Source of the DNA: a virus
Length of the DNA: 64,000 bases
Virus record (IMG/VR): IMGVR_UViG_3300045107_000413
Coordinates: 1-64,000 of that record
Reading direction: 5' to 3' (one strand)
The first letter of the stretch is position 1. Every line of letters begins with the position of its first letter. The notes below the pieces were generated by a model, which did not search any database, had not been told where the DNA came from, and saw nothing but the letters and a program-made list of their open reading frames with translations. The translations under genes were made by a program, and so were the position numbers. Below, in pieces: positions 1 to 55,776 of this stretch.

Positions 1-139
1 AAGTGTTTAGTTGCTTCAGAGGACTACTTTGAAAAGCTCCGATGTTTTCGGCCTATCGGTATTATACCACAACGAGCCTTGCTTGTTAAGGGTCTATAAG
101 TTCATTGATGCCCGTTTTACCGGAAGGGAAGAGTGAGAC

Positions 140-694
140 ATGAAATGTCTTTCCATTCAGCAACCGTTTGCATGGTTGATTGTCAACGGCTATAAAGACA
201 TCGAGAACCGCAACTGGTCAACGGATGTTCGCGGCTGTATCCTCATCCATGCAGGTAAGCAGGCAGATATATCTTTCTTTGATAAGGATGGCTTGCTCTA
301 CTTGCCTTATGCAGAGCATATCTGTAGCGAGGCCATAGCCTCCCTCATGCCAGAGCGACTGGCAGACTACGAACGGGGCGGTATCGTCGGCTATGCCACG
401 CTACAGAAGGTGGTCAGCCAGTCAGAGAGTCCCTGGTTTCGTGGCAAATACGGCTTTGTGCTGACGCAGCGCCGCCCCGTTCCCTTCATGCCCTTGCGCG
501 GGCAACTCGGTTTCTTCGATGCGCCCACGGAGATTGAAGAGGAGATCACCCGTATCCGGGATGAACGCGGCTGGTCAGCGGATATGGCTGACCTCACACA
601 AATCAAGCAGGAGTGGCGGGAGTACCGCTTAGCGGGCAACGCGCCGCCGCCCACACCGCCCTCGGAAATATGGAGCAATGACTATGACGACTGA
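140..694 (+). CDS. ASCH domain protein
   Basis: N-terminal LSIQQPFAWLIVNGYKDIENRNW matches the ASCH GxKxxExR motif; also GCILIHAG and GGIVG. Confidence 0.9.
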   Translation: MKCLSIQQPFAWLIVNGYKDIENRNWSTDVRGCILIHAGKQADISFFDKDGLLYLPYAEHICSEAIASLMPERLADYERGGIVGYATLQKVVSQSESPWFRGKYGFVLTQRRPVPFMPLRGQLGFFDAPTEIEEEITRIRDERGWSADMADLTQIKQEWREYRLAGNAPPPTPPSEIWSNDYDD

Positions 695-1073
695 ACCTCA
701 TCCAACACGACTCATTGCCTTGCGCACAGCACCCATCACCGATGCGCAGCCCGTGCTGTGCGTCACGTGCCACCGCCACGCAGGCCCGCACTGGCTCTAT
801 CTCGACTTCTGCGCGTTTCGCAGCAACCTGCTCTACCTGCGCACGGCAGTGCTGGCAGAGGACAGTATCCTCTCCCTTGCCGCCCATGAGCAGTACCGGC
901 GGGTGGAACGGCGGCGGCGGGAGGCGCTGTGGACAACGGTGCAGCGTGAGCATACAGGTCATGTCCCGTATGCGGCGCTGGGCCTTGTAGAAGTGGGGTG
1001 GGTGCTGGACGACGCACGGCAATTACTGAACAGGCTGTACTGGCGCTATCAACCGCGCACAGCGCACAGATAG
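678..1073 (+). CDS. hypothetical protein
   Basis: 131-aa ORF overlapping the ASCH stop, in operon orientation. Confidence 0.55.
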   Translation: MTMTTEPHPTRLIALRTAPITDAQPVLCVTCHRHAGPHWLYLDFCAFRSNLLYLRTAVLAEDSILSLAAHEQYRRVERRRREALWTTVQREHTGHVPYAALGLVEVGWVLDDARQLLNRLYWRYQPRTAHR

Positions 1074-6041: not shown

Positions 6042-6250
6042 TCGAACCACTTGCCCCAAAACGGCAAAGTCCTCTGCTAAACGGCAAGCTAGCAGAGGAC
6101 AGCCAAATTTACTGTTGTCGATGCACTTCCTAGTATACCACGAAACTAGGAAGTTGGAAAGGGGTATTCGTATGCAATTCACTACTGTAGCGCGTGTTTT
6201 TGCGCCTATTTTGATAGATGAAGCCGTGTGGAGGCGGTGGAGGTGGCATC

Positions 6251-8437
6251 ATGAGTGAGGATATAGCAGGCTATGCAGCCCTGAACTTTGATGGATTAGA
6301 GCGACGGGCAAACTATCGGTTTATTGGCTTTCGTGAAGACATCCTACAGGCTCTTGACCGCAATGACGCGGCGGCGATTCTCTTTGAAATCATCTGGCGC
6401 TGGCAAATAGAGTACCGGCGGGAAGAGATCATGAAGGAGAATGAGCGACGGAAAAAGGCCAACCTTCCCCTCTTAAGTACAGAGGAAGTGGAAGAACGCA
6501 TGTGGGTCTACATGTCCTACAATGACTTTGTACGTGAGTCAGGCGGGGCCATTGGCTACAATACCGTGATTCGCACACTGGATTTTCTCATCAACACCAA
6601 GAAAGTCTTCAGGCAACGCCCGAATCACAATCCCCACTACCCGGACTTTGAGTACAGCATCAATAAAGAGGAAGTACGCAAGCTCCTCAAAACCCTTCCT
6701 GCTACCCCAAAGTTCACCCCGAAAAAGCCGAAAAAGAAGGGAAAGCAGTCTACCCAAATGGGTATACCCGAACAGGACTCTACCCAAATGGGTATACCTG
6801 CTCAAAACAGAGGGTCTACCCAGACAGGTACACCAGTCTACCCAAATGGGTATACCCCGTCTACCCAAATGGGTACAGGGGTATACCCATTTGGGGGTAC
6901 ATCACAATATCACACAATATCTTCCACAGAATCATCACAGAGAGAGGGTGTTGCGCTTAGCGCGCACACCACACCCACACCTGCTTTTTCATCAGGAGAT
7001 CACCATGCCACCACAGACACCCCTGCTCCTGCTCAGCTGGACACTGCTCCTGCTGACATGGATAGCCGCCGTGAACTACCTGCCACGCCACCTGTAGCAC
7101 ATGAGAATGGTTCTCATTCTCACTTTCAAGCTGAACCGTATGCATATAGCCAACGGTCTATGCAGACGACACAAGGAGACGTACATGCAACAACTTCTCA
7201 TCCCCTTTCTGCTGACGATCATCATTCTTCAGTTGCTCATGCATTCCATCCTGCTGAGATGGATAGTGCAGGAGTTGAGAGAGTTGAACCGCCGTCGGTA
7301 GCCGCCGTGCCTATACGAAACACCTCATCCATTGGCGTGACCTTTCTGGAGGATGAGCCAGAAACCGTGACGGAGACGCCCTTTGCGGCAATGGATGCAT
7401 CTGTGCTGGCGGTGCTACTGGAACGGGAGCAGGTGATGCTTGCCGCCATGACGCCTGTACAGCGCGCACAGGCAGAGAGGACGTACCCTGACCTCTGTGT
7501 GGTGATCGGAGAGGACAGCGATTATGACCGACTCTTGACAGCAGGGCAGTGCCTCTCCGGGCGCGCCGCCCTTGCCGCCGATGTGTGCGCTCTTGCAGAG
7601 TTATCCACAGGGGATGTGGATAACAATGGGGATGAGGAAACGGTGAAGGGCGCGGCGGTGGGCTATGCCCATCCTCCGGTACTGCGCAAGACGGCCCGGC
7701 GCCCGGTTGGGGGCGAGAAAGGAGGCGTGAGAGATGGAATGCGACCCGCTTGCAGTGGGGATCGTTCTGCTCTCGGTGATCGGGGTACTGCTCTGCCTGC
7801 TGAGCCTCAACCTGGCAGCGCACGGCCTGCTCTGGCTATGGCGGAGGCAGCAGCGGCGGAGGCGGGACAGGAAATGAATGCCGTGCGCGTGACGCCGCCT
7901 GATAATGCCGTTCTCATCGATACGGGCAAGCGGGAGGCGGCGCGCCCGCAAGGAGAGCAGGAAATACCGGCAGGTGGCAGGAAGCGGGGGAGCCGCTCCC
8001 CGCGTGGCAGCACAAAAAAGACGCTCTCGGCTGAGCAGGAGGGACGCATTGCCGCCGTCTACGAGGCGCTGGACACTTTCTACCGCGAGGTCATGCCGAC
8101 TGATGCGACAGGGGGCTACGCCCGCACGAAGGCGGGGGATGCCGCCATCTTAGAGTTGATTGATAGCCGACAAGTCACACGCACGGACTTGCTGGACGTA
8201 TGCCGTGACATGTGGGATGAGGAGAGTAAGAACCGCGATACGGGCGTGATGGAATACTGGTGGCGGGCGCACGGGCATATGACGGTTGCCGCCATTTGCC
8301 ATCAGGTGCCCGTGCGCCTGCTCTCTATTCGCAGCAGGCGGCAACCAAAGTCAGGACAGCACGGCAGTGGAGTGCTAAGTCGTCCTACCCTTGCGGCAGA
8401 ACTGGCCGCAAAACAGGCAAAATATGCAGGAGTGTAA
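6251..8437 (+). CDS. phage replication initiator (lambda O-like organisation) with long low-complexity linker
   Basis: Lies directly upstream of DnaB; N-terminal wHTH-like region (WVYMSYNDF); internal iteron repeats. Confidence 0.7.
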   Translation: MSEDIAGYAALNFDGLERRANYRFIGFREDILQALDRNDAAAILFEIIWRWQIEYRREEIMKENERRKKANLPLLSTEEVEERMWVYMSYNDFVRESGGAIGYNTVIRTLDFLINTKKVFRQRPNHNPHYPDFEYSINKEEVRKLLKTLPATPKFTPKKPKKKGKQSTQMGIPEQDSTQMGIPAQNRGSTQTGTPVYPNGYTPSTQMGTGVYPFGGTSQYHTISSTESSQREGVALSAHTTPTPAFSSGDHHATTDTPAPAQLDTAPADMDSRRELPATPPVAHENGSHSHFQAEPYAYSQRSMQTTQGDVHATTSHPLSADDHHSSVAHAFHPAEMDSAGVERVEPPSVAAVPIRNTSSIGVTFLEDEPETVTETPFAAMDASVLAVLLEREQVMLAAMTPVQRAQAERTYPDLCVVIGEDSDYDRLLTAGQCLSGRAALAADVCALAELSTGDVDNNGDEETVKGAAVGYAHPPVLRKTARRPVGGEKGGVRDGMRPACSGDRSALGDRGTALPAEPQPGSARPALAMAEAAAAEAGQEMNAVRVTPPDNAVLIDTGKREAARPQGEQEIPAGGRKRGSRSPRGSTKKTLSAEQEGRIAAVYEALDTFYREVMPTDATGGYARTKAGDAAILELIDSRQVTRTDLLDVCRDMWDEESKNRDTGVMEYWWRAHGHMTVAAICHQVPVRLLSIRSRRQPKSGQHGSGVLSRPTLAAELAAKQAKYAGV
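6749..6900. repeat. iterons / probable replication origin
   Basis: TCTACCCAAATGGGTA at 6749, 6779, 6837 and 6860, a degenerate copy at 6815 and an inverted copy at about 6881-6899. Confidence 0.85.
7005..7097 (+). CDS. putative overprinted small membrane peptide 1 (30 aa)
   Basis: AGGAGA RBS; MPPQTPLLLLSWTLLLLTWIAAVNYLPRHL in the +1 frame of the rep gene. Confidence 0.45.
   Translation: MPPQTPLLLLSWTLLLLTWIAAVNYLPRHL
7185..7301 (+). CDS. putative overprinted small membrane peptide 2 (38 aa)
   Basis: AAGGAGA RBS; MQQLLIPFLLTIIILQLLMHSILLRWIVQELRELNRRR in the +1 frame. Confidence 0.55.
   Translation: MQQLLIPFLLTIIILQLLMHSILLRWIVQELRELNRRR
7601..7623. promoter_or_regulatory. pair of inverted perfect DnaA boxes
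   Basis: TTATCCACA (7601-7609) and TGTGGATAA (7615-7623). Confidence 0.7.
7734..7877 (+). CDS. putative overprinted small membrane peptide 3 (47 aa)
   Basis: AAAGGAGG RBS; MECDPLAVGIVLLSVIGVLLCLLSLNLAAHGLLWLWRRQQRRRRDRK in the +1 frame. Confidence 0.55.
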   Translation: MECDPLAVGIVLLSVIGVLLCLLSLNLAAHGLLWLWRRQQRRRRDRK

Positions 8438-8441
8438 CACA

Positions 8442-9815
8442 ATGGAAAAAGTGCTTCCACACAACATTGAGGCGGAGCAGGGCGTGCTTGGCAGCATCAT
8501 CCTTGACCCGGAGTCCGTCGCGCAGGTGATCGACTTTCTTGCGCCCACCGACTTCTACCGTGACGCCCACCGCACCATTTATGCCACGATCATGTATCTC
8601 TACAGCCAGCATGAACCCGCGGACTTCATCACGCTTTGCGATATGCTGGAACGCACCGGTTCACTGGAAAACGTGGGCGGGCCGTCCTACATCAGCAGTC
8701 TGCTTAATGAGGTGCCAACATCCGGCCATATTGCCCATTATGGTCATATCGTGGAGCGCACCAGCATCTTGCGCCAACTCATCCATGCCGCCGGGCAAAT
8801 TGCCGCCCTGGCCTATGAGCAGGGGGTTGAGGCACAGGACGCGCTGCGACGGGCAGAGGAGATCGTGTTTCGTGTCGGCAAACGGGCGCAACAGGCATCG
8901 TTTGCCCCCATGCAGCACATCATGGTTGAGTATGTGGAGCGCCTCTCAACCATTCATGAGGCGCTCAGGCAGCACAGGAGCGTCATCACGGGCGTACCAA
9001 CGGGCTACGGCGTCCTGGACAGCCTTACAGGCGGGTTGCAGCCAACTGACCTCATCATCCTTGCGGGCCGTCCTGGCATTGGCAAAACGGCGCTTGCGAC
9101 CTGTATTGCCTACCATGCCGCGCTCAAAGGTCGCAAGAAGTGCGCCGTCTTCAGTTTAGAGATGAGTCAGGGACAGTTAGGCGCTCGCCTGCTGGCAATG
9201 GTGACGGGCATCGATACGCAGCGCCAGCGCGCTGGCTGGATTGGAGAGGATGAGTGGGAGACCGTCATTGCTGCCTGTGGCAAGATTGGGCAACTCCCCA
9301 TCTGGGTCAATGACACAGCAGGCAATCCCATCCTCTCCATGCGCTCTCAGTTGCGCCGCCTCATTGCCGAGACAGGCGGCATTGATCTGGTGCTGGTGGA
9401 CTACCTGCAACTGGTGGAGCCGGAGGAGGGAGAAAGCCGGAAGCACTTTGAGAACCGCACGCAGGAAGTGGGCAAGATTGCGCGCGGCCTCAAGGCCCTG
9501 GCCCGTGAGTTCGAGGTTCCCGTGCTGGCCCTTGCCCAACTCTCCCGCGAGGTCGAACACCGCAAGCCACCGCGCCCCCTGCTCTCTGACCTGAAGGAAT
9601 CGGGAGATATCGAGGCGGCGGCAGATATGGTGCTATTGCTCTACCGCGAGGACTACTATGCCAGAATGGAGAAGCGGGAACACTACACCCCGACGAACCT
9701 GGCAGAACTTACTATTGCGAAGTACCGCAACGGCCCGGTCGGGGAAGTGGCTCTGTACTTTCAGGATGAGCGCACGATGTTCTACAACGTGGAGGACGTG
9801 ACCCATGTGGAATGA
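8442..9815 (+). CDS. dnaB: replicative DNA helicase
   Basis: PHNIEAEQGVLG, Walker A AGRPGIGKT, FSLEMS, VDYLQL, LAQLSR, DLKESGDIEAAAD, KYRNGP. Confidence 0.97.
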   Translation: MEKVLPHNIEAEQGVLGSIILDPESVAQVIDFLAPTDFYRDAHRTIYATIMYLYSQHEPADFITLCDMLERTGSLENVGGPSYISSLLNEVPTSGHIAHYGHIVERTSILRQLIHAAGQIAALAYEQGVEAQDALRRAEEIVFRVGKRAQQASFAPMQHIMVEYVERLSTIHEALRQHRSVITGVPTGYGVLDSLTGGLQPTDLIILAGRPGIGKTALATCIAYHAALKGRKKCAVFSLEMSQGQLGARLLAMVTGIDTQRQRAGWIGEDEWETVIAACGKIGQLPIWVNDTAGNPILSMRSQLRRLIAETGGIDLVLVDYLQLVEPEEGESRKHFENRTQEVGKIARGLKALAREFEVPVLALAQLSREVEHRKPPRPLLSDLKESGDIEAAADMVLLLYREDYYARMEKREHYTPTNLAELTIAKYRNGPVGEVALYFQDERTMFYNVEDVTHVE

Positions 9816-10023
9816 GCAGGCGGCCATGCAATGGGCGCGCAGGTGGCACTACCCGCAACTCTGCCTTGCCCGCGGCGTTCGCATCTATGCCGGGGAGCAG
9901 GCATGGAGACACTTCCTGCGGGAAGCAACCGATGAGGCGCTGGACGCTATTCACCGCAGGGTCGTGCGCTGGAACGCCCGCGCCAGTGGGTACATGCCGG
10001 TATTGGCAGGAGAACATCCATGA
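9805..10023 (+). CDS. hypothetical protein
   Basis: Overlaps the DnaB stop; WHYPQL motif resembles HGYPAL in the next ORF. Confidence 0.5.
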   Translation: MWNEQAAMQWARRWHYPQLCLARGVRIYAGEQAWRHFLREATDEALDAIHRRVVRWNARASGYMPVLAGEHP

Positions 10024-10391
10024 AGAAAGGCTATCTCAGCAAAACAACCTGTGCCAGCCACTATTGCCCGACCATGCAGGCGCTCCTGGATAGGGCAACG
10101 AGCAAAGCGGCAACGGTAGAGGAACTGGCGTCTATCCGCATCGCCATCAACAAGGATGATATGTGCTGTGATGCTACCGGTACGTACTGGTGCCATGCCT
10201 GTGCCGCACGCTGCGCCCTCATGAACTACGGCGCCTCGCACGGCTATCCTGCCCTCAGTTTCCCGCCCTACGCCGTCGGGGCGGGGCAAACACTCTGGCG
10301 CACGCTGGCAGGGTTAGGTATGCCAGCGTGCATTGAGGCATGGATGAGAGCATTGGGGTTAGACGGGCAGGAAGAGGAGGGAGCAGCGTGA
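10020..10391 (+). CDS. hypothetical Cys-rich protein
   Basis: ATGA-coupled with GGAG RBS. Confidence 0.55.
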   Translation: MKKGYLSKTTCASHYCPTMQALLDRATSKAATVEELASIRIAINKDDMCCDATGTYWCHACAARCALMNYGASHGYPALSFPPYAVGAGQTLWRTLAGLGMPACIEAWMRALGLDGQEEEGAA

Positions 10392-18622: not shown

Positions 18623-19834
18623 TGCACTACCCGCCAGAACTGCCTGCGCTCAATGTTACATGGGAGCATGAGCAGGCGACAACCATCATCCACCGCTACT
18701 GCCGCGCGGGCCTCACCCTCGGCCTCTCGCGTATTGCAACGCTCTTACGCGCGGCACCTATTGCCGCAGAAGAGTGCGATGAACTCCTCTCCTGCCTTGC
18801 CCACGCGCGCCATCATGCAGAGCGGGATATGTGCCGCTATCAGGCAGACATAGTAGGGAGGCTGCAATGAGGAAGCAAGATGACCTTTGCGACCCGTATC
18901 ACCTGAGCCGCCTGGATGAGTACCTGCTCGTGCGTGATTTTTGATGATGAGGATGGAGGAAATCCATCCAGGAGGTGAGGGATGCAACGAACACGAACAT
19001 ACCCCTTCTGGCTGCGCTGGTTACACGCCCGTTTCTGTGAGTGGCTAGAGCAGTACGAGCAGGCCCGCGCCTGGTCAGCGCGCCATTGCCCCTGCTGCGG
19101 CACGCCCGTCTCCTCACATGACGCCCGCTACTGCGCCATGTGCGGGCAGTGCCTGCTGGTGGAGGCGCGGGTGACGGACAGCCTGCCAATAGCGCGCCTG
19201 CACAGTGGGGAGTTGCTGCGCGCCTATCGGGACAGGGAAGGCCATCGGGCGGGCGTCTCTACCACCGAACACCGCGCCTATGTGCGCACGCCGGAGAACC
19301 ACCAATGAAGGAGAAACCGATGCCTACAACGCCCTTGCTCTACCCTGCTGCCGTCATCGCGGCCTTTGTCTATCTGCTGCTGGTGTGCCGCCTTGTCGTC
19401 ATCGTGCGGGAGTCCCTTGCTGTGCTGCGTGCCAGTAAACAGCATCACCCCGTTTGCTGGCTTGCCCCCGATGACGCACTCTGGTTAGACGCCGTGTTCA
19501 GTGATGCCTATGAGGAGTTGACCGAGTGCGACGACTAGGGATACGGACACTGTTCCGTTTGCTGGCACGGACGCGGCAGGCACCGCCCGTTGCGCCCCTG
19601 GTGCTGCGACGCCGTGAGAAGGGGCTGTCATGGGAGGAGTACGTGGCCTTGCAGCGCGTTTCCCTGGCTGCTGATGTGCAACTCTTTGACGGCTCGCTCT
19701 CCTTGGAGGAATATGTGCGCATGAGTCACCAGACACAGCATGTTACCCGTGTGTTGTACCATCATTTAGGGGCAAGTACGCTCCCCGAATATCTGCTCGA
19801 TGCCCCTACTGAGAAAGTCGAGACACTATGCTAA
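18622..19834 (+). CDS. four small hypothetical ORFs (18622-18870, 18982-19308 zinc ribbon, 19305-19538 TM, 19526-19834)
   Basis: Coupled small ORFs leading into the cas locus; CPCC...CAMC in 18982-19308. Confidence 0.5.
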
Positions 19835-21429
19835 CCACCACCAATCCCTATCAGCAACTCATTACGTCCTATACCACAGCACATGGCTACACCGACAGCG
19901 CGCCCCGCTACCAGCCCTGCCGCGTGACCCTCACCCTGTTGCAGCCCTATGCCGGCTATGACCTCCCGCACCTGGACGGCCTGCTCTCCTCCGTCGTCGT
20001 CACGCAAGCCTTGCAGGGGGCGCGCCTCCCAAAGGACAATACCCTCTATACCATTCCGCTCCCGCTTGAAGTTCTCTGGCGCGACAGCGCAGGCACGCCG
20101 CTCTTCCATGCGAGCAGCCTCTTTCCCGACCCACGCCACAGCAAGCATGTCTTCTCCTGGACAAAGAAAAATGACGAGGTGGCCTCCCGCTTTGCCGAAC
20201 GCAAACGCGACGGCGCGCTCTGGCAGCCCGATAGCGGAAGCGGCCAGTTCAAAGAGTACCGCATGCCCCTTCCCATCACGGCATCGGCCCACTTCACCGG
20301 CTACGCCTACGGGGACACAGAGGAGATAGCGCGCCTCTTGTCACTCCTGCATACGACCGGCAAGAAGGGCGCGTGGGGCTTCGGGCGCATTGCCCGCGTT
20401 GAGGTGGAACCCTGCGGCAAGCCGGGGCGCTACGTCTTTGTGCAGGGCGGGCGACTCCTGCGCCCCGTACCTGCTGCCGCTCTACCTGTGCTTGGACTGG
20501 TAGCAGAGGGAACACCTGTCCTCATCGGCTACTCCCCGCCCTACTGGTTGCCTGCCAAACAGGCGCAGTGCTACCCCGAAGGTACAGCAGTCCGGGAAGC
20601 GGTCAGTGCCGCAAAGCCCGTTGTGATGCCGCGCTGGTCAGTCCCGTCCTTCCTACTGTACTGCCAGCAGCAGGACGCCCTGCGCCGTCACGGTGATCTC
20701 ATCCTGCTCCATGACAAATTCCAACGCGGCAAGGGGGAAGGGGCCTTATGCGCGCTCACAGGACTGCCCATTACTGACGGCGGGGCGGTTGCCGCACGGG
20801 ATGCGCTCTCATCCAATATGGGCAATGTGGTCGATTTCTGCAAGGCCCCGCAGAGTCCCTGGGTAAGCAACGCGGCAGCGATCATCCTCTCACAGCCCAA
20901 GTCGATGCACCGCAACCTGGTGGCGCTGCTCTCGCCGCAAGGAGAGGGACACCTGCTCTGGCCCACCATCGCATTGGATCCAAAGCAGCCCGAGGCTGTG
21001 CGACCACTGTGGCGGGAGGTGCTACTGGTGCTGCACGAGCGGTATATGGGCTATCAGTGCGTGGTGATCTACAAGGATGAGCCGAAGTCACGAACGTGGC
21101 CACGCGCCAGGATCGGCGTGGTGGGCGCTTCTATGCCCATCCATTTTTCGGATAGCACGTTCGGTATCTCGAATCTGCTCGTCGTCGATATCGAGACAGT
21201 CGTCGAGCAGATGTCCTTTATCGAGTCGCTACTCGATGGGGGCTATGGCAAGACCCAGATACGGCTTGGTCTGCGTGCGCCTTCGATCGAGAGGCTAGCA
21301 CGCACATTGCAAGCAGAAAAGCGCCTGGCCGCGATGCGCATAACGGCTGAATTTCCCCTGGCATGGAGCGCGGCCAGGACGACCGAAGATCGAACGTTAC
21401 GAAAAGGAGTACAACCCGATGTCGACTAG
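19828..21429 (+). CDS. csf3-csf1: type IV Cas fusion: Csf3 (Cas5-family RAMP) N-terminal, Csf1 (Cas8-like) C-terminal
   Basis: Csf3 motifs HLDGLL, IPLPL, GQFKEYRMP, GDTEEIARLL, GKKGAWGFG, RPVP, PPYW; C-terminal CALTG...DFCKAPQSPWVS resembles a degenerate Csf1 Zn-finger region. Confidence 0.8.
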   Translation: MLTTTNPYQQLITSYTTAHGYTDSAPRYQPCRVTLTLLQPYAGYDLPHLDGLLSSVVVTQALQGARLPKDNTLYTIPLPLEVLWRDSAGTPLFHASSLFPDPRHSKHVFSWTKKNDEVASRFAERKRDGALWQPDSGSGQFKEYRMPLPITASAHFTGYAYGDTEEIARLLSLLHTTGKKGAWGFGRIARVEVEPCGKPGRYVFVQGGRLLRPVPAAALPVLGLVAEGTPVLIGYSPPYWLPAKQAQCYPEGTAVREAVSAAKPVVMPRWSVPSFLLYCQQQDALRRHGDLILLHDKFQRGKGEGALCALTGLPITDGGAVAARDALSSNMGNVVDFCKAPQSPWVSNAAAIILSQPKSMHRNLVALLSPQGEGHLLWPTIALDPKQPEAVRPLWREVLLVLHERYMGYQCVVIYKDEPKSRTWPRARIGVVGASMPIHFSDSTFGISNLLVVDIETVVEQMSFIESLLDGGYGKTQIRLGLRAPSIERLARTLQAEKRLAAMRITAEFPLAWSAARTTEDRTLRKGVQPDVD

Positions 21430-22918
21430 CGTAGTAGCGTTGTTATCCGCTCAGACCAGTATTGCCCATGGCGACCCGGGGGCCTCTGGCACGAGCAATG
21501 TGACCCCGTTTCGGATGCAGCAGGTTCTCTATCCCCGCGCCAATACACAGCCCCTTACTGATGACGTGGAGGCCATTGGTGAAGAGCCTGCCGCTCTGCG
21601 TATCCGTGCGATTCATGAAGCAGAGACAGCCATCCGTGAGCTGGCCCGCTCCTATCCGCTGCCCGCCGACAGCTACCTTGCCCTTGCCCTGCAAGGGCTC
21701 CAGGCAGAACAATTCATTGCCTCCGCCTTTGTCTATTCGCTTATCAGCCAGCTCAACAGCATGAATGGCGGGGATGGTGCAGGTCTCTTCTCCGGCATAG
21801 AACGCTATGATATGCTCTTGAAGCGCCTGGAGATCGTGGCGAACCAGTACCAGACCAGCATGTTCACGCTCTACGCGGCCCTTTTGCGCCAGCTGGGCAT
21901 CGAAGAGAGCCTGCCGAAGATGACGGATATCCTGTGGAGGTATGCCGCGCTGCCGCGAACGGTGCAGCAGTCCGTCATTGCCACGCTGGGCGCTGACCGG
22001 CAGGCGGTGGTGACGATTGCGCGGGCCTGGTTCGAGGATGAGCGGGCGCGCAGGCGCGGGCGCAAGGAGCAGGAAGAATGGGGGCTGTTTGAGGAGACTG
22101 ACTACTATGACCCCACCGGCAAGGTCGCTGGAACCTCGCTCACCTTTGCCGAGGCGGCGATCCCGTGGGTCTCCAGCAATACGTTCCGGCATACGGTCTT
22201 CCGCGAGACGCTCTGCAATCATCTGCTGGAGGCGCTCGAATTTGGCTCTCTTGCCGAGGTGGTCTCCCGCAAGGCGCTTCCTCACTACGTGATCCAGCTG
22301 CTGTCCAATGGCGGCAACGTCAAGGCCAATGCCAAAGCCCCCGATTACAGCAATGCCATTAATCTGGCGGTGATGGGCCTTTTCCCCTCACTGGAACTGC
22401 TCTCCGGGTGCCTACCCACCCACATGATGGGTGAGGGGGCGCTTTCGGTTGCCGACTGGACGCTGTGCCTGCAAAACAATGAGAATACTGCACCGCTGGG
22501 CTACATCTCCGATGTCGATGCGGCGAGCATGCTCACCATTGAGACGCACACACGCCATACGCCGCCGGGGATGGGCAACGATAAGGAAAGTGGGCAGATG
22601 CTTTTCAGCCATACCGTCATGAAGCCGGGGTGCCAGGTGCTCTTCGAGTTCAGCGTTGCGCCATTTGCCTCCCACCTCGCAAAAGGTGCTGCCTACTTTG
22701 CGTACCGCAGCTGGCTGGCGGCAGGAGGGCAGGTCGGTGGCCACGACAATATCGGGGAGGGGCGGTTCCGGCTGGTGGAGCAGCGAGGCGTCGAGGAGGA
22801 ACTGGAGCGCGCAGCCGTCGATTATCAGCGGTATGTGGATCAGCACCGCGATGCGTTGTACGAGGCGCTGGCGACCGGGACGATGGGCTGGAAGGAACGG
22901 TTGCCAGCGTGGGGGTAG
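21419..22918 (+). CDS. csf2: type IV Csf2 (Cas7) with internal Cas11-like helical insertion
   Basis: TSIAHG...TPFR, IPWVSSNTFRH, LLSNGG, FPSLELLSG, THTRH, QMLFSHTVMKPG, G-rich loop GGHDNIGEG; about 200-aa helical insert between FR and IPWVS. Confidence 0.85.
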   Translation: MSTSVVALLSAQTSIAHGDPGASGTSNVTPFRMQQVLYPRANTQPLTDDVEAIGEEPAALRIRAIHEAETAIRELARSYPLPADSYLALALQGLQAEQFIASAFVYSLISQLNSMNGGDGAGLFSGIERYDMLLKRLEIVANQYQTSMFTLYAALLRQLGIEESLPKMTDILWRYAALPRTVQQSVIATLGADRQAVVTIARAWFEDERARRRGRKEQEEWGLFEETDYYDPTGKVAGTSLTFAEAAIPWVSSNTFRHTVFRETLCNHLLEALEFGSLAEVVSRKALPHYVIQLLSNGGNVKANAKAPDYSNAINLAVMGLFPSLELLSGCLPTHMMGEGALSVADWTLCLQNNENTAPLGYISDVDAASMLTIETHTRHTPPGMGNDKESGQMLFSHTVMKPGCQVLFEFSVAPFASHLAKGAAYFAYRSWLAAGGQVGGHDNIGEGRFRLVEQRGVEEELERAAVDYQRYVDQHRDALYEALATGTMGWKERLPAWG

Positions 22919-22920
22919 CA

Positions 22921-23400
22921 ATGCCTGATCTCATCCTTGTTATCGGGCCATGTGGCGCGGGCAAAACCACCTATGCACGGACGCACTATCCGCAGTACCT
23001 GCATGTGGACTATGAGCGGCTCATCCAGTCGCTCTTTGCCGAGCCTGCCCACTTTCGCTTCTATCCCCATGTGCGTACCTGCGGCGCGCTCCTCTTTGAT
23101 GCAGCGGCCCGTCACCTCATTGCAAAGCGGCAGAATGTCTGCCTCACACTTGGCGGGGCGACGCGCCAAGAGCGCGCAAAATACGTTGATCTGGCCTTTG
23201 ATACCAATATGGATGCGCACTGCATTCGCTTGCTGGTAGACCGGGATACCTGTATTTCCCGTGCAAAAGCGGACACACTGCGCCCTGTTTCTTCCCGACC
23301 TTCCTGGCAAGGCGTGGTCGATCACTGGTTTGCTGCCTGGGAACCGGTCGACGCCGTGCAAGAGGGATTCGCGTCATACCAGGAGATTGAGAATGGATGA
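22921..23400 (+). CDS. P-loop kinase (AAA_33 / polynucleotide-kinase-like)
   Basis: LILVIGPCGAGKTTYAR, TRQERAKY, TCISRA. Confidence 0.85.
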   Translation: MPDLILVIGPCGAGKTTYARTHYPQYLHVDYERLIQSLFAEPAHFRFYPHVRTCGALLFDAAARHLIAKRQNVCLTLGGATRQERAKYVDLAFDTNMDAHCIRLLVDRDTCISRAKADTLRPVSSRPSWQGVVDHWFAAWEPVDAVQEGFASYQEIENG

Positions 23401-24190
23401 GATGGAACGGCTGCAACATGATCTCTATAGCCGCACCAACGCTTTCAGGCGCAAGTTGGACGTGGCGCAGTGCGCCATCAATGAGGGGTTAGCCGCAATG
23501 GGAAGCACGCCCTACGTCTCATTTTCAGGTGGCATCGATAGCACTGTGTTGCTTGACCTGCTTTTCTCACAGGATGTCCGCCTACCCGTTCTCTGGGGCG
23601 ATGACGGGGCTGATTTCCCCGTCACGCTTCAGTTCCTCTCAGACACCCAGGCGCGCTACGGCTTCCATCTCATCCGTATTCGCAGCATGGCCCCCTGGCG
23701 CGCGTGGTGTCAGGAGATGAGCCGCCCCGACCTCTCCGATGACCCGGAGGCCAGAGACGCCTGGCTCAACCCACGCATCTGGAATGATACCTGGCACACC
23801 CTTACCCGCGACGCGCCTGCACATGGCTACACAGGCGTCTTCATGGGCATGCTGGCAGCAGAATCGCGTGCGCGCTCCTATGTGTTGCATCAGGGACGTC
23901 GCACTCTCTATCAGGTCAAGGGTGAAGGCGGCATGTGGCACTGCTCTCCGCTTGCCGGTTGGAGTAAGCGTGAAGTCTGGGCCTACGCCGTCTCAAGAGG
24001 GCTGGCCTACAATCCTGTGTATGACCGGCTTGCTGAATTGCACATCCCACTAGCATATCGCCGCGTCGCCGCCATGACGTGTTATCGGGTACTCCAATGG
24101 GGTAGCCACGCGGGCCAGTTCAGATACATCGATTCCGACCTCTCCAACCGACTGTGCACGCTGTTCCCTCGCCTGCGCGCTTTCAGCTAG
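23393..24190 (+). CDS. cysH: CysH-like PAPS-reductase-family (PP-loop) protein
   Basis: YVSFSGGIDSTVLL, AAESRAR, CSPLAGWSKREVWAY, YNPVYD; typical partner of type IV-B loci. Confidence 0.9.
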   Translation: MDEMERLQHDLYSRTNAFRRKLDVAQCAINEGLAAMGSTPYVSFSGGIDSTVLLDLLFSQDVRLPVLWGDDGADFPVTLQFLSDTQARYGFHLIRIRSMAPWRAWCQEMSRPDLSDDPEARDAWLNPRIWNDTWHTLTRDAPAHGYTGVFMGMLAAESRARSYVLHQGRRTLYQVKGEGGMWHCSPLAGWSKREVWAYAVSRGLAYNPVYDRLAELHIPLAYRRVAAMTCYRVLQWGSHAGQFRYIDSDLSNRLCTLFPRLRAFS

Positions 24191-24201
24191 TTTCGTACGT
24201 G

Positions 24202-24247
24202 CAAAGAGGCGCTGCTTCCCATTCATCGTGGAAGCAGCGCCTCTTTG
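24202..24247 (+). terminator. terminator of the cas operon
   Basis: 18-bp perfect stem CAAAGAGGCGCTGCTTCC / GGAAGCAGCGCCTCTTTG. Confidence 0.8.
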
Positions 24248-24341
24248 TTGCAAACTCAATCTGACCAGATGCGAGTTCACAGAAGATGATAGCAGATTCA
24301 AACGAATTTTTCACCTTCCCGGAAATTCGTCCCAAAACCCC

Positions 24342-24380
24342 TTGACAATCTGTATACATTGGTATACAATCGTATACAGA
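24342..24380 (+). promoter_or_regulatory. sigma-70 promoter with overlapping GTATAC operator repeats
   Basis: TTGACA-17-TACAAT; three GTATACA units; TCTGTATAC...GTATACAGA inverted pair. Confidence 0.85.
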
Positions 24381-24434
24381 TGAGGGAGCGCAAGGGACGC
24401 TCTCCGAAAAAGAAATGAACAGGAGATATTCGAC

Positions 24435-24785
24435 ATGGCAAACTACCAGCAGATTCTTGATCAGTACATTGCATCGCAGAATTTCAAAGATGGCGTGGTC
24501 TCGGCCACGAAGGCGTCATGGGGCGGTGGCGGCTACAGCGTCGAGTTATTCGAGGATGGGACCTGGCGCAACCTCTGGAACAACCAGATCGGCAATCGCT
24601 ACGAGACATCGGGTATCCTGCTCGGCCTTCCTACCATCAGTGAGAATATCACTCGCGAGATGGATGAGGAAAAGGCCGTCAACGATGATAGCAATCTGCG
24701 CGACGCCTTCGATTATGAGTTCGATGATCTGGCGAAGGAGTTGCGCGAGAGCCTCTCCGACCAGCTCGCGATGATGGAAATGTAG
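24435..24785 (+). CDS. hypothetical acidic protein
   Basis: AGGAGA RBS; first gene after the promoter. Confidence 0.7.
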   Translation: MANYQQILDQYIASQNFKDGVVSATKASWGGGGYSVELFEDGTWRNLWNNQIGNRYETSGILLGLPTISENITREMDEEKAVNDDSNLRDAFDYEFDDLAKELRESLSDQLAMMEM

Positions 24786-24796
24786 TAAGGAATATT

Positions 24797-25249
24797 ATGC
24801 CAAGTCCACAGATTCAGTTTCGGGCAGTTGGCCCGCTTACAGATGAGCTAGAGAGCCGCTCGGAGGTGGGGAAACCTGCCTCTGAAGTGGCACGTCGTGA
24901 TTTGGGGCGCTATTATGTCCTGCTGGCGCGTAGCTTGCCCCAGTTTACATTGGAGGAGGCCATGCTGCTGGTCAATGCTCTGAACGGGCATCTGACCATG
25001 CCGGAGACGGCACACCTGCTCTGGGCGGAGGTGGAGGGGTTTGTCGTGAGCCAGCTCGGCGATGAGGATTCCTATCCGAATAAGTGGGATTCGCTGATCT
25101 TGCGGCTCAAAAAGTTGACGCCGTTTGAACAGTTGGCAGTCGCCGACGCAGTAGAACGCGCCTGGAATGCGTCGGCGTATCACCTGTCGGATATGTCCGA
25201 GCGGCTGCTTGCGGTCGGGCTGGTGCGCAAGGAGGGAGGTGCCTCCTGA
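24797..25249 (+). CDS. probable ribbon-helix-helix regulator
   Basis: PQIQFR beta-strand followed by SEVARRDLGRYY helices. Confidence 0.6.
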   Translation: MPSPQIQFRAVGPLTDELESRSEVGKPASEVARRDLGRYYVLLARSLPQFTLEEAMLLVNALNGHLTMPETAHLLWAEVEGFVVSQLGDEDSYPNKWDSLILRLKKLTPFEQLAVADAVERAWNASAYHLSDMSERLLAVGLVRKEGGAS

Positions 25250-53106: not shown

Positions 53107-55776
53107 CTAAATATTGCCGAATTGCGCGCGCAGCTTATCCCCCAGGTTGCGCGCCAGTTGACTGACCTCACTGCTGCTGCCTGATGCCATATTGACACTC
53201 ACGTTGAGCGTAACCGGGCCGTGCGTGATGTTCGTGGTGTGTGCCGCCTGCTGTGGGGCCTTAATCATGGCATTGAGTTGCGCCTGTAGTTGCGGTTGCG
53301 CCTGCTTCATGCCCTCTACAAAGCCCTTGACTGCGTTTTGCCCCCACTCGATGATGTGCTGGCCTTCCCCCATTTTGGCAGGAGAGTGGAAGCCCAGAAA
53401 GGAGGCAACGGTGGAGATGATATTTTTTGCGGCGTTACCCACGGCACCCACCATGCTCATGATACCCGAAATGAAGCCGGAGATCACATTTTTGCCCCAC
53501 GTGATAGCGATTGAGGCCAGATTACTAAACCAGGAAGAGATGTTGTGCCAGATGGAAGACAGCGCCCCGGAGATGCCCGCCCAGGCGGCGCTAAAGACGC
53601 CCGTGATGGCTGACCACGCCGACTGTACCAGTCCTTTGACCGTCCCCCACAGCGTAGTCCAGCCTGCCACCTGCTTTGCCCACCAGGCAGAAATGGCCCC
53701 CCACAGGGCAGAGAGGACAGCCATGATGGCCCCGGAGATAGCCGTCCAGATGGACTGGGCAAGACTCTTCAGATTGTTCCAGACCCCCGTAAGCCAGGTC
53801 ATGACGGCATTCCAGATGGTGACAATGCCCTTCCACTCCGTCTGTACCGCCGCCTGAATAGCCGTCGTGAGCGCCGTCCAGATGGCCTGTGCGCTGGTTT
53901 TGAGGTTCTGCCACGTGGTCGTCACCCAACTGACAATTGCCTTCCACGTGCTTTGCAGCCAGGTACTCACGCCCGTAATGACCGTGCGGATGCCGTTCAC
54001 CAGATCATGGAAATAATAGTTGTGGTTGTAGAGCCAGCTAAACCAGCCCACAACGGTCTGGATAGCTGTCTTGATGGCCCCGACGATATTGCCCCATACG
54101 CTCTTTGCCAGTGAGACGATGCCGCCCCAGACGCCCGCCAGGAAGGATTTCACCTGGTTCCAGTGCGTGACGATAAAAAGGACGGCCATGCCCACCGGGC
54201 CGATGATGACGGCTAGCAGGATGAGGGCGGCGACACGCACTATTTGTACAATTACTGACCAGGCGGCAGAAGCGGCAGATTGTATCCCCGACCAGATAGC
54301 ATGCATACGAGTACCCAGGCCAGAGAAGAAATTCCCGATAGCGGTGACGGCATTGTGCGCAAAGGTGCCAATAGCGGAGAAAATATTGCCGAAGAAGCTA
54401 GAGATGCCTGACCAGACGCCCTTGAGCCAGGCCGTGATTTGCCCCCAGTGCTGGATAGCCAGGATGAGCAGGGCAACGGCGGCAATGACTGCCAGGACAA
54501 TGGCCCACAGTGGCGCACCGGCAATAGTTACCGCAAGAAAGCCGCCCGCCATCGCAATGAGGGAGGGTACCACTGCTGCCAGGACAATCACGGCCAGCCC
54601 TGCCAGCACACCGCCCAATACGGCAAGCACGGGGGAGTTGGCTTGCAGCGTAGCAGCCCATTTCGCAAAATTCGTGATGAGCGGGGTGACGGCCCCCAGG
54701 ATTTTCCCCAGGACGGGCAAGAGTTTGGTGCCGATTTCAATGGCGGCGACCTGGACGGCGGCGCGCGCCTGATCCATCTTGAAGTTGAAGGTCTGCTGTA
54801 CCGCACTCCAACCAGCTACTGATCCCTTGTTGGCATTCATCACCCCCGACACGTTCTTCATGTTCGCCTCGAAGGTCTGCAAGTGCGTCCCGGTCAGGTC
54901 AAGCAACCCCTGCATTTGCTTGGAGCCGCCCGCAATGGCCTTGAGGGCCGCCACGTACTGCGGGGAGCCGACCTTGTAGGTCTGGGCTAAGTGCTGCATA
55001 ATCATGGAGAGCGCATCCGGCAGGCTCTTCTTCATCTCCGCGCTCACCTGACTGGTAGTGAGGCCAATGGCCTTGAGCGCATCCGAGCCTGCTTTGGCAG
55101 GGGCGGAGAGGGCAATCAAGAGCTGGCGCAAATAGGTCGCGGCGTTGGCAGCAGGCACGCCCTCCGCCGTCATGGTCGCCATCGCCGCCCCCACGTCAAT
55201 GAGATGCACCCCCACCGCAGAGGCGGTCGGCAGGATTTGCGACATGGAGCCTGCTAAGTCCTGCATCGTCGTCTTGCCGTTTTGCACGATGGCCGTCAGA
55301 AAGTTCATGGCCGTGGCCGCGTCCTTCGCCTTGATGCCGTAGTCCGTCATGACGGTGGTGAGGGCATTCGCCACGACAGCCAGGTCGGCATTACCGACCT
55401 TACTGCCCTCGGCTGCTACCCGCATCACCTCAAGGCCCGCCGCCCCGTGATAGCCCGCGCTCTCGATCATGAACATACCCTGGATAAGTTGCTGCGTGGA
55501 TGTACCCGTATCGACCGACATTTGCAGGAGGCTCTGCCCCACCATGCCGATGGCTTTGCTGGACTCACCCGCCCCCGTCACCAGCGTGGTGAGGCCACTC
55601 TGAAAATCTGCCGCCGCCTTGACGGAGTAGCCGACTGCCGCCCCGAAGGCCAGCAGCGCCGCCCCCGCCGCCATTGCCGCTGGTTGCACGGCGCTCATGT
55701 ACTGGCTGAATTGCTGCATCGCACCTGAAGCGTTGTTTTGTGCATTAATGATGATACGCAACGTAATATCTGGCAT
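53107..55776 (-). CDS. tail tape measure protein (TP901-like)
   Basis: Ala/Gly-rich, GKTTMQDL, AANAATYLR, Trp-periodic repeats, GFHSPAK. Confidence 0.95.
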   Translation of the reverse strand: MPDITLRIIINAQNNASGAMQQFSQYMSAVQPAAMAAGAALLAFGAAVGYSVKAAADFQSGLTTLVTGAGESSKAIGMVGQSLLQMSVDTGTSTQQLIQGMFMIESAGYHGAAGLEVMRVAAEGSKVGNADLAVVANALTTVMTDYGIKAKDAATAMNFLTAIVQNGKTTMQDLAGSMSQILPTASAVGVHLIDVGAAMATMTAEGVPAANAATYLRQLLIALSAPAKAGSDALKAIGLTTSQVSAEMKKSLPDALSMIMQHLAQTYKVGSPQYVAALKAIAGGSKQMQGLLDLTGTHLQTFEANMKNVSGVMNANKGSVAGWSAVQQTFNFKMDQARAAVQVAAIEIGTKLLPVLGKILGAVTPLITNFAKWAATLQANSPVLAVLGGVLAGLAVIVLAAVVPSLIAMAGGFLAVTIAGAPLWAIVLAVIAAVALLILAIQHWGQITAWLKGVWSGISSFFGNIFSAIGTFAHNAVTAIGNFFSGLGTRMHAIWSGIQSAASAAWSVIVQIVRVAALILLAVIIGPVGMAVLFIVTHWNQVKSFLAGVWGGIVSLAKSVWGNIVGAIKTAIQTVVGWFSWLYNHNYYFHDLVNGIRTVITGVSTWLQSTWKAIVSWVTTTWQNLKTSAQAIWTALTTAIQAAVQTEWKGIVTIWNAVMTWLTGVWNNLKSLAQSIWTAISGAIMAVLSALWGAISAWWAKQVAGWTTLWGTVKGLVQSAWSAITGVFSAAWAGISGALSSIWHNISSWFSNLASIAITWGKNVISGFISGIMSMVGAVGNAAKNIISTVASFLGFHSPAKMGEGQHIIEWGQNAVKGFVEGMKQAQPQLQAQLNAMIKAPQQAAHTTNITHGPVTLNVSVNMASGSSSEVSQLARNLGDKLRAQFGNI

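Follow-up and report, generated by a model that had tools for sequence, protein, structure and literature searches.

The 64,000-nucleotide window analysed here (positions 1 to 64,000 of the IMG/VR record IMGVR_UViG_3300045107_000413) carries a run of plus-strand genes that includes a csf2 gene whose product contains an internal Cas11-like domain (Table 1). The virus record comprises 122,512 bases (CheckV 100%) and encodes a protein with a tape-measure match (E 1e-70), and on its sequence the host of the module is a tailed phage with a 122.5-kb genome. A simple k-mer scan, as opposed to a dedicated CRISPR finder, detected no CRISPR-like array anywhere in this genome (no 20-mer family with at least 3 copies spaced 40–110 nt). 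Scans of positions 19000–24800 for promoters and terminators gave counts not above those of shuffled sequence.

Table 1 Genes and protein segments of the phage module, in window coordinates
Feature	Position	Strand	Basis
csf3 (Cas5) in the N-terminal half, C-terminal half possibly Csf1-like; 533 aa	19828..21429	+	NCBIfam, PDB, BLASTP
csf2 (Cas7) with internal Cas11-like domain; 499 aa	21419..22918	+	Profile, model, structural alignment
N-terminal portion of the Cas7 core (aa 1-38), with strands at 3-11 and 33-39; motifs AHGDPG and N..TPFR	21419..21532	+	Model, structural and profile alignment, BLASTP
Insert (aa 39-246), eight helices (aa 57-219) between two linkers	21533..22156	+	Model, insert-less relatives
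Cas11-like core of the insert, aa 78-213; motifs GxGLFxGxxRYxxLxxR and ARxW	21650..22057	+	VIA-align, HMM, free-standing profile
Cas7 core, main part, aa 247-499; begins IPWVSSNTFRH	22157..22918	+	Family profile, phrog_22746
P-loop kinase-like gene (AAA_33)	22921..23400	+	Pfam AAA_33 E 3.9e-11; PHROG/NCBIfam ATPase / polynucleotide kinase
CysH-like gene, PAPS-reductase fold	23261..24190	+	Pfam PAPS_reduct E 2.7e-16; phrog_424 E 1.4e-19

The gene upstream of csf2 overlaps its start by 11 nt. The encoded protein matched the NCBIfam model TIGR03116 (cas5_csf3) over residues 29–197 with an E-value of 1.9e-12, below the curated cut-off of that model, and the Csf3 chain 7xfz_B in the PDB over residues 32–198 (E 3.7e-7). 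Its C-terminal half is possibly Csf1-like, as suggested by a weak match of residues 304–482 to the Csf1 of the viral contig L003 (pairwise BLASTP, E 0.004, 23% identity). The csf1 model TIGR03114 had no match in the phage genome, and a protein-atlas search with this half returned low scores only (0.75; TM ≤ 0.34). On the other side of csf2, the kinase-like gene begins 2 nt past the stop codon. The CysH-like ORF that comes after it starts, as listed, at a GTG; a start at the ATG at 23393 instead would leave an overlap of 8 nt with the kinase stop. Subtype IV-B is recognised by its CysH-like accessory gene.

The start codon assigned to csf2 is backed by a GGAG Shine-Dalgarno sequence at 21406–21409, 9 nt 5′ of the ATG, and by N-terminal residues that are invariant in close homologues (H17, G18, D19, P20, G21, N27, F31 and R32). 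The database gene call for the same protein is 467 aa, probably shorter through the choice of a later start codon. The segment that drew attention to the gene in the sequence-only reading, 21539–22125, lies on the plus strand within this ORF and translates without a stop into 195 residues containing the strings quoted in that reading; the whole frame is likewise free of stops.

Searches with the single ORF sequence (P0002) found no Pfam family and no PDB match at E-values up to 10. The NCBIfam model TIGR03115 (cas7_csf2) scored it at 15.8 bits (E 0.0062), short of the curated cut-off of 130 bits; the short Csf2 proteins of the canonical operons on viral contigs L002 and L003 also reached only 18–22 bits, so this model does not cover the phage Csf2 clade. 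A PDB sequence search with a short Csf2 (P0129) found no match either. A family profile built from an 83-row alignment recovered homology with experimentally defined Csf2 and its relatives in the PDB, namely 7jhy_e (Csf2, E 6.5e-15), 11fs_C (Cas7c, E 1.6e-11) and 8rc2_A (Csf2, E 3e-6), with profile positions 6–43 aligned to residues 15–53 of 7jhy_e. Residues 246–482 of the ORF protein matched phrog_22746 (E 1.9e-12).

The predicted structure agrees with this assignment. AlphaFold2, run on the 499-aa protein with the 83-row alignment, gave a model with a mean pLDDT of 91.5 and a pTM of 0.86, in which eight helices at residues 57–219 are flanked by strands at 3–11, 33–39 and 243–249. The model superposes on solved Csf2 with a Cas7/RAMP fold: in VIA-align it matched 8rc3_D with Z 21.9 (rmsd 3.3, 266 positions aligned, model residues 3..497) and the Csf2 chain 7jhy_a with Z 19.0 (rmsd 2.6, 226 of 228 aligned, model residues 3..484), and Foldseek matched it to 8rc3_D at E 1e-8. 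The neighbouring genes are of type IV as well: the one that overlaps it upstream encodes a Csf3 domain, and a CysH-like gene lies downstream. Profile and model together identify the ORF as a Csf2/Cas7 of the type IV-B family, predicted to polymerise on RNA as a helical backbone.

What the Csf2 match leaves over is a stretch of ~208 mostly helical residues. TPFR ends at residue 32 and IPWVSSNTFRH begins at residue 248, a gap of about 215 residues. In 20 of 20 insert-less relatives (18 search matches and the csf2 genes of L002 and L003), 1–2 residues occupy the alignment columns corresponding to aa 40–244, and BLASTP against the 280-aa Csf2 of L002 paired aa 8–37 with 6–37 and aa 248–497 with 45–279. 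The second motif starts at residue 57 in 7jhy_e (IV-B), at 34 in 11fs_C (IV-C) and at 40 in 8rc2_A (IV-A). Solved Csf2 chains span model residues 3 to 484–498 with only 226–267 aligned positions and hence leave the insert uncovered. The sequence-only reading had proposed that about 200 mostly helical residues separate two motifs that are normally a short loop apart; both parts of that proposal hold, with eight helices predicted between the motifs, and no ordinary Csf2 subdomain aligns with the insert. The insert splits the Cas7 core in the loop that leads from the first beta-hairpin (AHGDPG...N.TPFR) to the strand and helix bearing IPWVSSNTFRH.

Folded alone, the insert was modelled with a pLDDT of 87.8. 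When it was compared with 48,161 representative PDB chains, the top VIA-align match was 7jhy_h, the Cas11 of a solved IV-B complex, with residues 34..169 of the insert model (aa 78–213) matching 7jhy_h 9..147; the score (Z 10.2, rmsd 3.2 Å, 124 of 143 aligned) is not decisive alone because helical bundles may reach Z ~13–14 through a common arrangement. The authors of the 7JHY structure describe the IV-B Cas11 fold, in the available part of their report (PMC7937560), as distinct from the small subunits of types I and III, which makes the match to 7jhy_h specific. Sequence evidence points to the same chain: the family profile matched 7jhy_h, named ‘Csf4 (Cas11)’ in 7JHY, with E-values of 1.5e-5 and 1.3e-5, the HMMER alignment covering only its C-terminal 88 residues (69–156).

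Among 1.84 billion proteins searched, four free-standing proteins of 120–228 aa (P0146, P0150, P0151 and P0155) matched only aa 50–238 of the query (E 3e-6 to 6.5e-5), and two of the four come from genes that take the place of cas11 in canonical IV-B operons. On the viral contigs L002 and L003, the Cas11-like gene (149–150 aa) stands directly 5′ of a short csf2 (279–280 aa), followed by csf3 and a cysH-like gene; of these two contigs, only L003 has a csf1 match upstream of the Cas11-like gene. A profile of the four free-standing proteins found a single match in the phage genome, at 21746–22078 inside the csf2 ORF (E 8.4e-21). Against 7jhy_h this profile reached E 0.54, behind an unrelated decarboxylase at 0.47, and a PDB sequence search with P0151 found no match. 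The GxGLFxGxxRY..L..R and AR motifs are kept in both the inserted and the free-standing forms, and G120, G122, G126, R129, Y130, L133, R136, A201, R202 and W204 in the insert are at least 90% conserved among the 83 rows of the family alignment (~27% identity).

The bundle thus has the IV-B-specific arrangement of its top structural match, and the family profile and the free-standing homologues supply the sequence relationship; together they show the insert to be homologous to the IV-B small subunit, for which the sequence-only reading had noted a resemblance. In IV-B operons Cas11 is a small protein with a gene of its own, which lies between csf1 and csf2, whereas here it is an internal domain of Csf2. 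Because it is internal and stop-free and the 122.5-kb genome has no other Cas11-like region, we regard it as a homologous domain and not as a free subunit. Some type I cas8 genes release free Cas11 by internal translation. We set this option aside for the phage gene: there is no in-frame stop 3′ of the insert, so an internal start would still give a Cas11-Cas7 fusion. The module combines the core genes of subtype IV-B (csf2, csf3 and cas11, the last as a domain) with an adjacent cysH-like gene and, by the k-mer scan, the absence of a CRISPR array.

The inserted and the free-standing forms have a complementary distribution among the sequences scanned. When nine sequences (the whole phage genome and eight loci) were scanned in six frames, each proved to have one Cas11-like region and no more; it lies within the Cas7 ORF in seven of them and is separate in the other two. 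A CysH-like ORF lies downstream in all six of the further insert-bearing loci. Among the 150 representatives of 50%-identity clusters listed, 101 have the fused form (N-terminus, insert and core), and every homologue with a source-given name is called a hypothetical protein. The branch that would give a single origin in a tree of the Cas7 core is weakly supported (SH-aLRT 73). Neither blastn of positions 19000–25000 against phage records nor tblastn of the ORF protein against phage and plasmid records gave a match, and a related-locus search of viral contigs and genome contigs with alignment A3 found no relatives.

The closest solved system is the canonical IV-B effector of Mycobacterium sp. 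JS623 (PDB 7JHY; Zhou et al. 2021, PMC7937560). The phage module shares with it the Csf2 fold and sequence family, the Cas11 fold and sequence, an operon that includes Csf3 and a CysH-like gene, and the lack of an array. It differs in that Cas11 is a domain in a Csf2 loop instead of having its own gene, and in gene order, which is csf3(-csf1-like?)-csf2::cas11-kinase-cysH in the phage and csf1-cas11-csf2-csf3-cysH in canonical IV-B. The phage Csf3 also carries an extension of ~330 aa, the module adds a kinase-like gene, and it resides on a tailed phage, whereas the JS623 effector is found on a plasmid. The putative catalytic Asp42 of 7JHY Csf2 aligns with a conserved Asn, N27, in the phage protein. 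The phage-borne canonical operons of L002 and L003 are also close, with a Cas7 of the same clade (BLASTP E 2e-24), a Cas11-like protein homologous to the insert (HMM E about 1e-33 to 1e-35), and both CysH-like and Csf3 proteins; unlike the phage gene, their cas11-like gene is free-standing and directly precedes csf2.

Covalent Cas7-Cas11 linkage with fewer subunits is also a property of III-E Cas7-11 (gRAMP) and III-I Cas7-11i, as described in the available part of PMC12669027. Those proteins do not polymerise and join three or four Cas7 domains in a line to a single Cas11 domain, whereas the phage protein has a single Cas7 core, with no chain of fused Cas7 domains and no Cas11 between them. 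The family profile made weak local matches to Cas7-11 chains (E 0.024), and these chains align with the phage model over one stretch only (for example 7xc7_A 668..880, Z 13.9). A different route to fusion from that of III-E, as the sequence-only reading had suggested, is what the loop-inserted domain in one Cas7 core represents. Since Cas11 is housed in the fold of that single core, the unit is expected to keep polymerising, with its own Cas11 for each Cas7. Other fusions place the small subunit in another Cas protein as well (C-terminal in Cas8 or Cas10, the Cas10-Cas11 replacement of III-H and the nuclease-Cas11 of I-E3; PMC12669027, available part). They are terminal, on a large subunit or nuclease, and present in one copy per complex, whereas the phage domain is internal to a repeating backbone subunit.

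In the literature openly available as full text, we came across no account of a Csf2 that contains a Cas11 domain. The available portions of PMC8175902, PMC7038947, PMC10848311, PMC12669027 and PMC7937560 do not describe one, although their supplementary tables could list such variants; the fusions mentioned in those portions are csf1-csf3, Cas7-11/Cas7-11i, and Cas11 with Cas10 or nucleases only.

The explanation that best accounts for the locus as a whole, which we hold with a probability of about 0.8, is a IV-B Csf2 with a loop-inserted Cas11 that forms part of a two-filament, two-protein, array-less phage effector. Cas11, normally a separate protein, has become a domain in a Csf2 loop. Each protomer, we infer, would provide one unit of an RNA-binding Cas7 filament and, via two linkers of ~20–27 residues, one unit of a Cas11 minor filament on the target-facing side, and the upstream Cas5-(Csf1-like) fusion would complete a two-protein class 1 effector. 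From the array-less tailed phage and the coupled kinase-like and CysH-like genes, we infer that the module, as the solved IV-B complex does, may assemble around an RNA that it receives in trans, either a host crRNA or an RNA unrelated to CRISPR, and may be of use to the phage in a conflict or in the modification of nucleic acids. The covalent link would fix the Cas7:Cas11 ratio at 1:1, which is a smaller change than the sequence-only reading implied, given that Csf2 and Cas11 already stand at 6 to 5 in the solved IV-B complex (PMC7937560, available part).

We consider it unlikely that the insert is a Cas11 descendant that no longer works as a small subunit and serves instead as a lid in cis, as a regulatory domain or as the platform on which the kinase or the CysH-like protein docks, with no minor filament. 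The covalent tether does keep the domain with the protomer it belongs to, the pTM of 0.86 for the whole protein fits a defined packing in cis, an extra N-terminal helix (aa 57–76) extends beyond the Cas11-matching part, and the gene order is unlike that of the canonical operon, with a kinase added. However, conservation of the motifs is as strong in the insert as in the free-standing Cas11-like proteins, and across the 9 of 9 sequences scanned the insert loci lack a second Cas11-like region while the insert-less loci always have one, a pattern that functional replacement predicts. A much smaller chance attaches to the insert being a lineage-specific helical bundle unrelated to Cas11, its resemblance due to chance or convergence. 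Foldseek with the insert alone found nothing in the PDB at E ≤ 0.001 (best E 1.6, to an unrelated chain) and ranked 7jhy_g only 16th (E 3.0), yet with the best TM-scores (0.38 / 0.49); helical bundles often yield middling Z-scores, and the Pfam and single-sequence PDB searches were empty. Against this stand the independent sequence-profile match to 7jhy_h (E 1.5e-5), a top structural match far above the second row (Z 10.2 vs 5.2) and the homologous free-standing genes that occupy the cas11 position in canonical operons. That the 499-aa ORF arose artefactually, through a faulty assembly or a frameshift that joined separate cas11 and csf2 genes, is scarcely credible despite the 467-aa database call, since an end-to-end gene fusion would put Cas11 at one end whereas here the N-terminal strands of Cas7 come before the insert, the frame has no stop, and the continuous architecture recurs in 101 of the 150 listed cluster representatives, which come from many samples, and in 6 loci that were assembled independently.

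According to the available part of PMC8175902, the function of subtype IV-B is unknown. Extending the Csf2::Cas11 effector reading, we can offer only as a tentative possibility that Cas7::Cas11 is a self-contained block that lays both strands and that, with the Cas5-(Cas8-like) fusion, it makes a two-protein, array-less ribonucleoprotein in many phages. Such a particle might be used with the CysH-like enzyme, and here also with the kinase, and act on captured RNA or DNA in counter-defence or host takeover and not in adaptive immunity.

Of the CRISPR-Cas subtypes, IV-B is the least well understood; it binds heterogeneous RNA and has a conserved CysH-like partner. To our knowledge it has neither an array nor a nuclease, and we know of no role for the CysH-like protein. 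The phage gene is a conserved but unannotated variant of this subtype, and a large phage-borne clade (101 of the 150 representatives listed) merges backbone and small subunit in one polypeptide. Because this clade escapes the Cas7 and Cas11 models now in use, type IV-B is under-counted when phage genomes are surveyed. Alongside the known routes of subunit reduction in class 1, which are linear Cas7-11 fusions and the joining of Cas11 to a large subunit, domain insertion into a unit predicted to keep polymerising is a third. It implies that the pairing of Cas7 with Cas11 is under strong selection even without a crRNA, and the predicted minimal two-gene effector should be easier to reconstitute and image.

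The stretch singled out by the sequence-only reading (21539-22125) is open in frame, its translation contains the residue strings quoted there, and it sits within a 499-aa plus-strand ORF (21419-22918). At its ATG start this ORF shares 11 nt with the end of the upstream gene. Because GGAG stands 9 nt ahead of this ATG and the first 32 residues are kept in close homologues (H17, G18, D19, P20, G21, N27, F31 and R32 are invariant in 6/6 rows), the database gene call of 467 aa is probably too short at its start.

As a single sequence, the protein had no match in Pfam or in the PDB, and its hit to the NCBIfam model cas7_csf2 was below threshold (15.8 bits, cut-off 130). Of 1.84 billion cluster representatives searched with phmmer, 166 reached E ≤ 0.001, and the best 150 of these form the match list used below. 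In a separate listing of 20 close homologues most are nameless, and any name given by the source is "hypothetical protein". We aligned the query with 82 hand-chosen, near-full-length matches (A1), and the resulting profile matched solved type IV Cas7 proteins (IV-B Csf2 7jhy_e, E 6.5e-15; IV-C Cas7c 11fs_C, E 1.6e-11; IV-A Csf2 8rc2_A, E 3e-6). The AlphaFold2 model built on A1 (pLDDT 91.5, pTM 0.86) matched IV-A Csf2 (E 1e-8) and the IV-B Csf2 chain 7jhy_a (E 1.9e-4) in Foldseek, and VIA-align superposed it on 8rc3_D (Z 21.9, rmsd 3.3, 266 aligned, model range 3..497) and on 7jhy_a (Z 19.0, rmsd 2.6, 226/228 aligned, model range 3..484). The host protein of the insert is Csf2/Cas7; by these alignments its Cas7 core extends from residue 3 to the C-terminus, yet it covers only about 226-267 of 499 residues.

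The insertion is genuine and falls within the Cas7 fold. In the model, strands 3-11 and 33-39 precede eight helices between residues 57 and 219, followed by a strand (243-249) and a helix beginning with the SSNTFRH motif, in agreement with the proposed 200 or so mostly helical residues between TPFR and IPWVSSNTFRH. The statement that these motifs are normally a short loop apart was also borne out: all 20 insert-less relatives aligned (18 matches of 274-339 aa and the csf2 genes of viral contigs L002 and L003) show just 1-2 residues where the query has aa 40-244. BLASTP against the 280-aa Csf2 of L002 paired aa 8-37 with 6-37 and aa 248-497 with 45-279, and in the solved IV-A, IV-B and IV-C Cas7 chains the second motif starts at residues 34-57. 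The inter-motif distance in A1 is 169-228 residues in 83/83 rows, by construction, as long matches were chosen.

Sequence, structure and synteny, each moderate singly, all point to homology of the insert to type IV-B Cas11, the small subunit that it resembles according to the sequence-only reading; it is their agreement that makes the case. Chain 7jhy_h of the solved IV-B complex, deposited as "Csf4 (Cas11)", was matched by the A1 profile (E 1.5e-5) and by that of the insert alignment A2 (E 1.3e-5), profile positions 113-202 aligning with chain residues 69-156 of 162; the HMMER match is confined to the C-terminal half of Cas11. Folded alone on A2 (aa 45-240, pLDDT 87.8), the insert found 7jhy_h as its top structure among 48,161 PDB representatives (Z 10.2, rmsd 3.2 Å, 124/143 aligned, insert-model residues 34..169, or aa 78-213 of the Csf2 protein), with an unrelated runner-up at Z 5.2, in a VIA-align comparison where middling Z can arise by chance for helical bundles. 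Foldseek of the insert model against the PDB gave nothing significant; 7jhy_g, another chain of 7JHY, ranked 16 (E 3.0), yet had the highest TM-scores. The match to 7jhy_h is specific, because the 7JHY authors describe IV-B Cas11 as unlike the small subunits of types I and III in how its helices are arranged (PMC7937560).

Among the best 150 of the 166 matches, four free-standing proteins of 120-228 aa (P0146, P0150, P0151 and P0155) match the insert only (E 3.2e-6 to 6.5e-5); the motifs GxGLFxGxxRYxxLxxR and AR are common to the inserted and free-standing forms. A search with the profile of these four (A4) led to L002 and L003. In each, the small gene lies immediately 5′ of a csf2 of 279-280 aa, and csf3 and a cysH-like gene come next; in the canonical IV-B order cas11 occupies this position (PMC8175902). 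Upstream, a 305-aa ORF of L003 weakly matched csf1 (E 0.001), and its 290-aa counterpart in L002 matched no family. Against the PDB chain 7jhy_h the A4 profile scored E 0.54, second behind an unrelated protein; in the 122.5-kb phage genome it matched once, inside the csf2 ORF (E 8.4e-21).

Separate HMMs for the N-terminus, insert and core were scanned over the same best 150 of 166 matches. The full fused form accounts for 101; 16 are intact and insert-less (N-terminus and core), and four carry the insert alone. The others comprise core alone (17, either fragments or short forms that have diverged), insert and core (8, mostly truncated), N-terminus and insert (3, fragments) and N-terminus alone (1, a fragment). 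Six further insert-bearing loci, on viral contigs (L004-L007) and on MAG contigs labelled Chloroflexota and Microbacterium (L009-L010), all have a CysH-like ORF downstream (6/6), with Csf3 detected in 2/6 among the ORFs scanned. A six-frame scan of the whole phage genome and eight loci found a single Cas11-like region in each, within the Cas7 ORF in 7/9 and in a separate ORF in 2/9. One polypeptide thus joins a Cas7 core to a Cas11-homologous domain, and loci have either the fused form or a free cas11. In a Cas7-core tree with insert columns removed (47/83 A1 rows, the first 10 and then every second, plus 20 short forms), one state change suffices for the insert (0/500 shuffles as low) and support for its branch is weak (SH-aLRT 73); the tree would allow a single origin. 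In L004, two overlapping PAPS-reductase/CysH-like ORFs in different frames (8353-9165 and 8742-10373) follow csf2::cas11. In L005, the ORF directly 5′ of csf2::cas11 (6078-6995), where csf1 might be expected, has an N-terminal HTH-like match (AcpB/EbpR/MafR family, E 2e-6; weak Csa3 HTH).

The carrier is an IMG/VR virus record of 122,512 bases (CheckV 100%) that encodes a DnaB-like helicase, and its predicted tail tape-measure protein confirms it as a tailed phage. Our own repeat scan found no CRISPR-like array in the phage genome. Within the Csf3 extension (roughly 330 aa), aa 304-482 of the upstream protein weakly align to the L003 Csf1 (E 0.004, 23% identity); the csf1 model TIGR03114 matched nothing in the phage genome. 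In that alignment "CATCG" of L003 Csf1 pairs with "CALTG", so one CxxC cysteine is lost. The kinase-like gene lies between csf2 and a downstream CysH-like gene; a P-loop kinase is not known as a standard IV-B component. Elsewhere, copies of the 16-24-nt repeat CAGTCTACCCAAATGGGTATACCC and its variants (at 6745, 6778 and 6833) look like an iteron set. Both the final 50 and the final 100 bases of the record are repeated elsewhere in the genome; its first 50 bases are not.

Coordinates of features in the window
Feature	Position	Strand	Description
Repeat set	6745-6856		in 739-aa ORF 6218-8437
Upstream gene	19828-21429		N-terminal half Csf3/Cas5
Possibly Csf1-like part of extension	20737-21273		
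N27 codon	21497-21499	+	
A4-profile match	21746-22078		
Kinase-like gene	22921-23400		P-loop, AAA_33; weak polynucleotide-kinase matches; start 2 nt past csf2 stop
Direct repeat	39639-39707		~24 nt, 45 nt spacing, within 1186-aa minus-strand ORF
Tail tape-measure protein	53107-55776	-	phrog_58 E 1e-70

Canonical IV-B is the closest system, from which this locus differs in its internal Cas11 domain, altered gene order, extended Csf3, added kinase and phage carrier. Because VIA-align finds one Cas7 core only, the protein is not a Cas7-11, as the proposed distinction from type III-E had it. The Cas11 fusions known so far place the small subunit at an end of the protein and join it to a large subunit or a nuclease (PMC12669027). 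A literature search covering main texts found no description of a Cas11 domain inside Csf2. In a low-scoring alignment piece, N27, an Asn, pairs with Asp42 of 7JHY Csf2, a residue proposed to be catalytic; because this Asn is conserved (≥90% in the 83-row A1, and also in short phage Csf2 forms), RNA cleavage by the Cas7 of this clade seems unlikely.

The observation of the sequence-only reading is confirmed and its interpretation supported: Csf2 with an internal Cas11 is a variant of the IV-B effector not described in the main texts searched. The insertion point lies ~10 residues past the loop that, in the A1 profile alignment, corresponds to what is called the "catalytic loop" in 7JHY Csf2. 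This "catalytic loop" is described as near the modelled target strand (PMC7937560), so the insertion point would emerge on the face that small subunits occupy. In 7JHY, five Cas11 lie on the Csf2-Csf2 interfaces of a six-Csf2 backbone (PMC7937560). By analogy, Cas7::Cas11 protomers would polymerise on RNA, each tethered Cas11 domain would dock on a neighbouring Csf2-Csf2 interface, and the docked inserts may build a minor filament with a strict 1:1 stoichiometry in place of n:(n-1).
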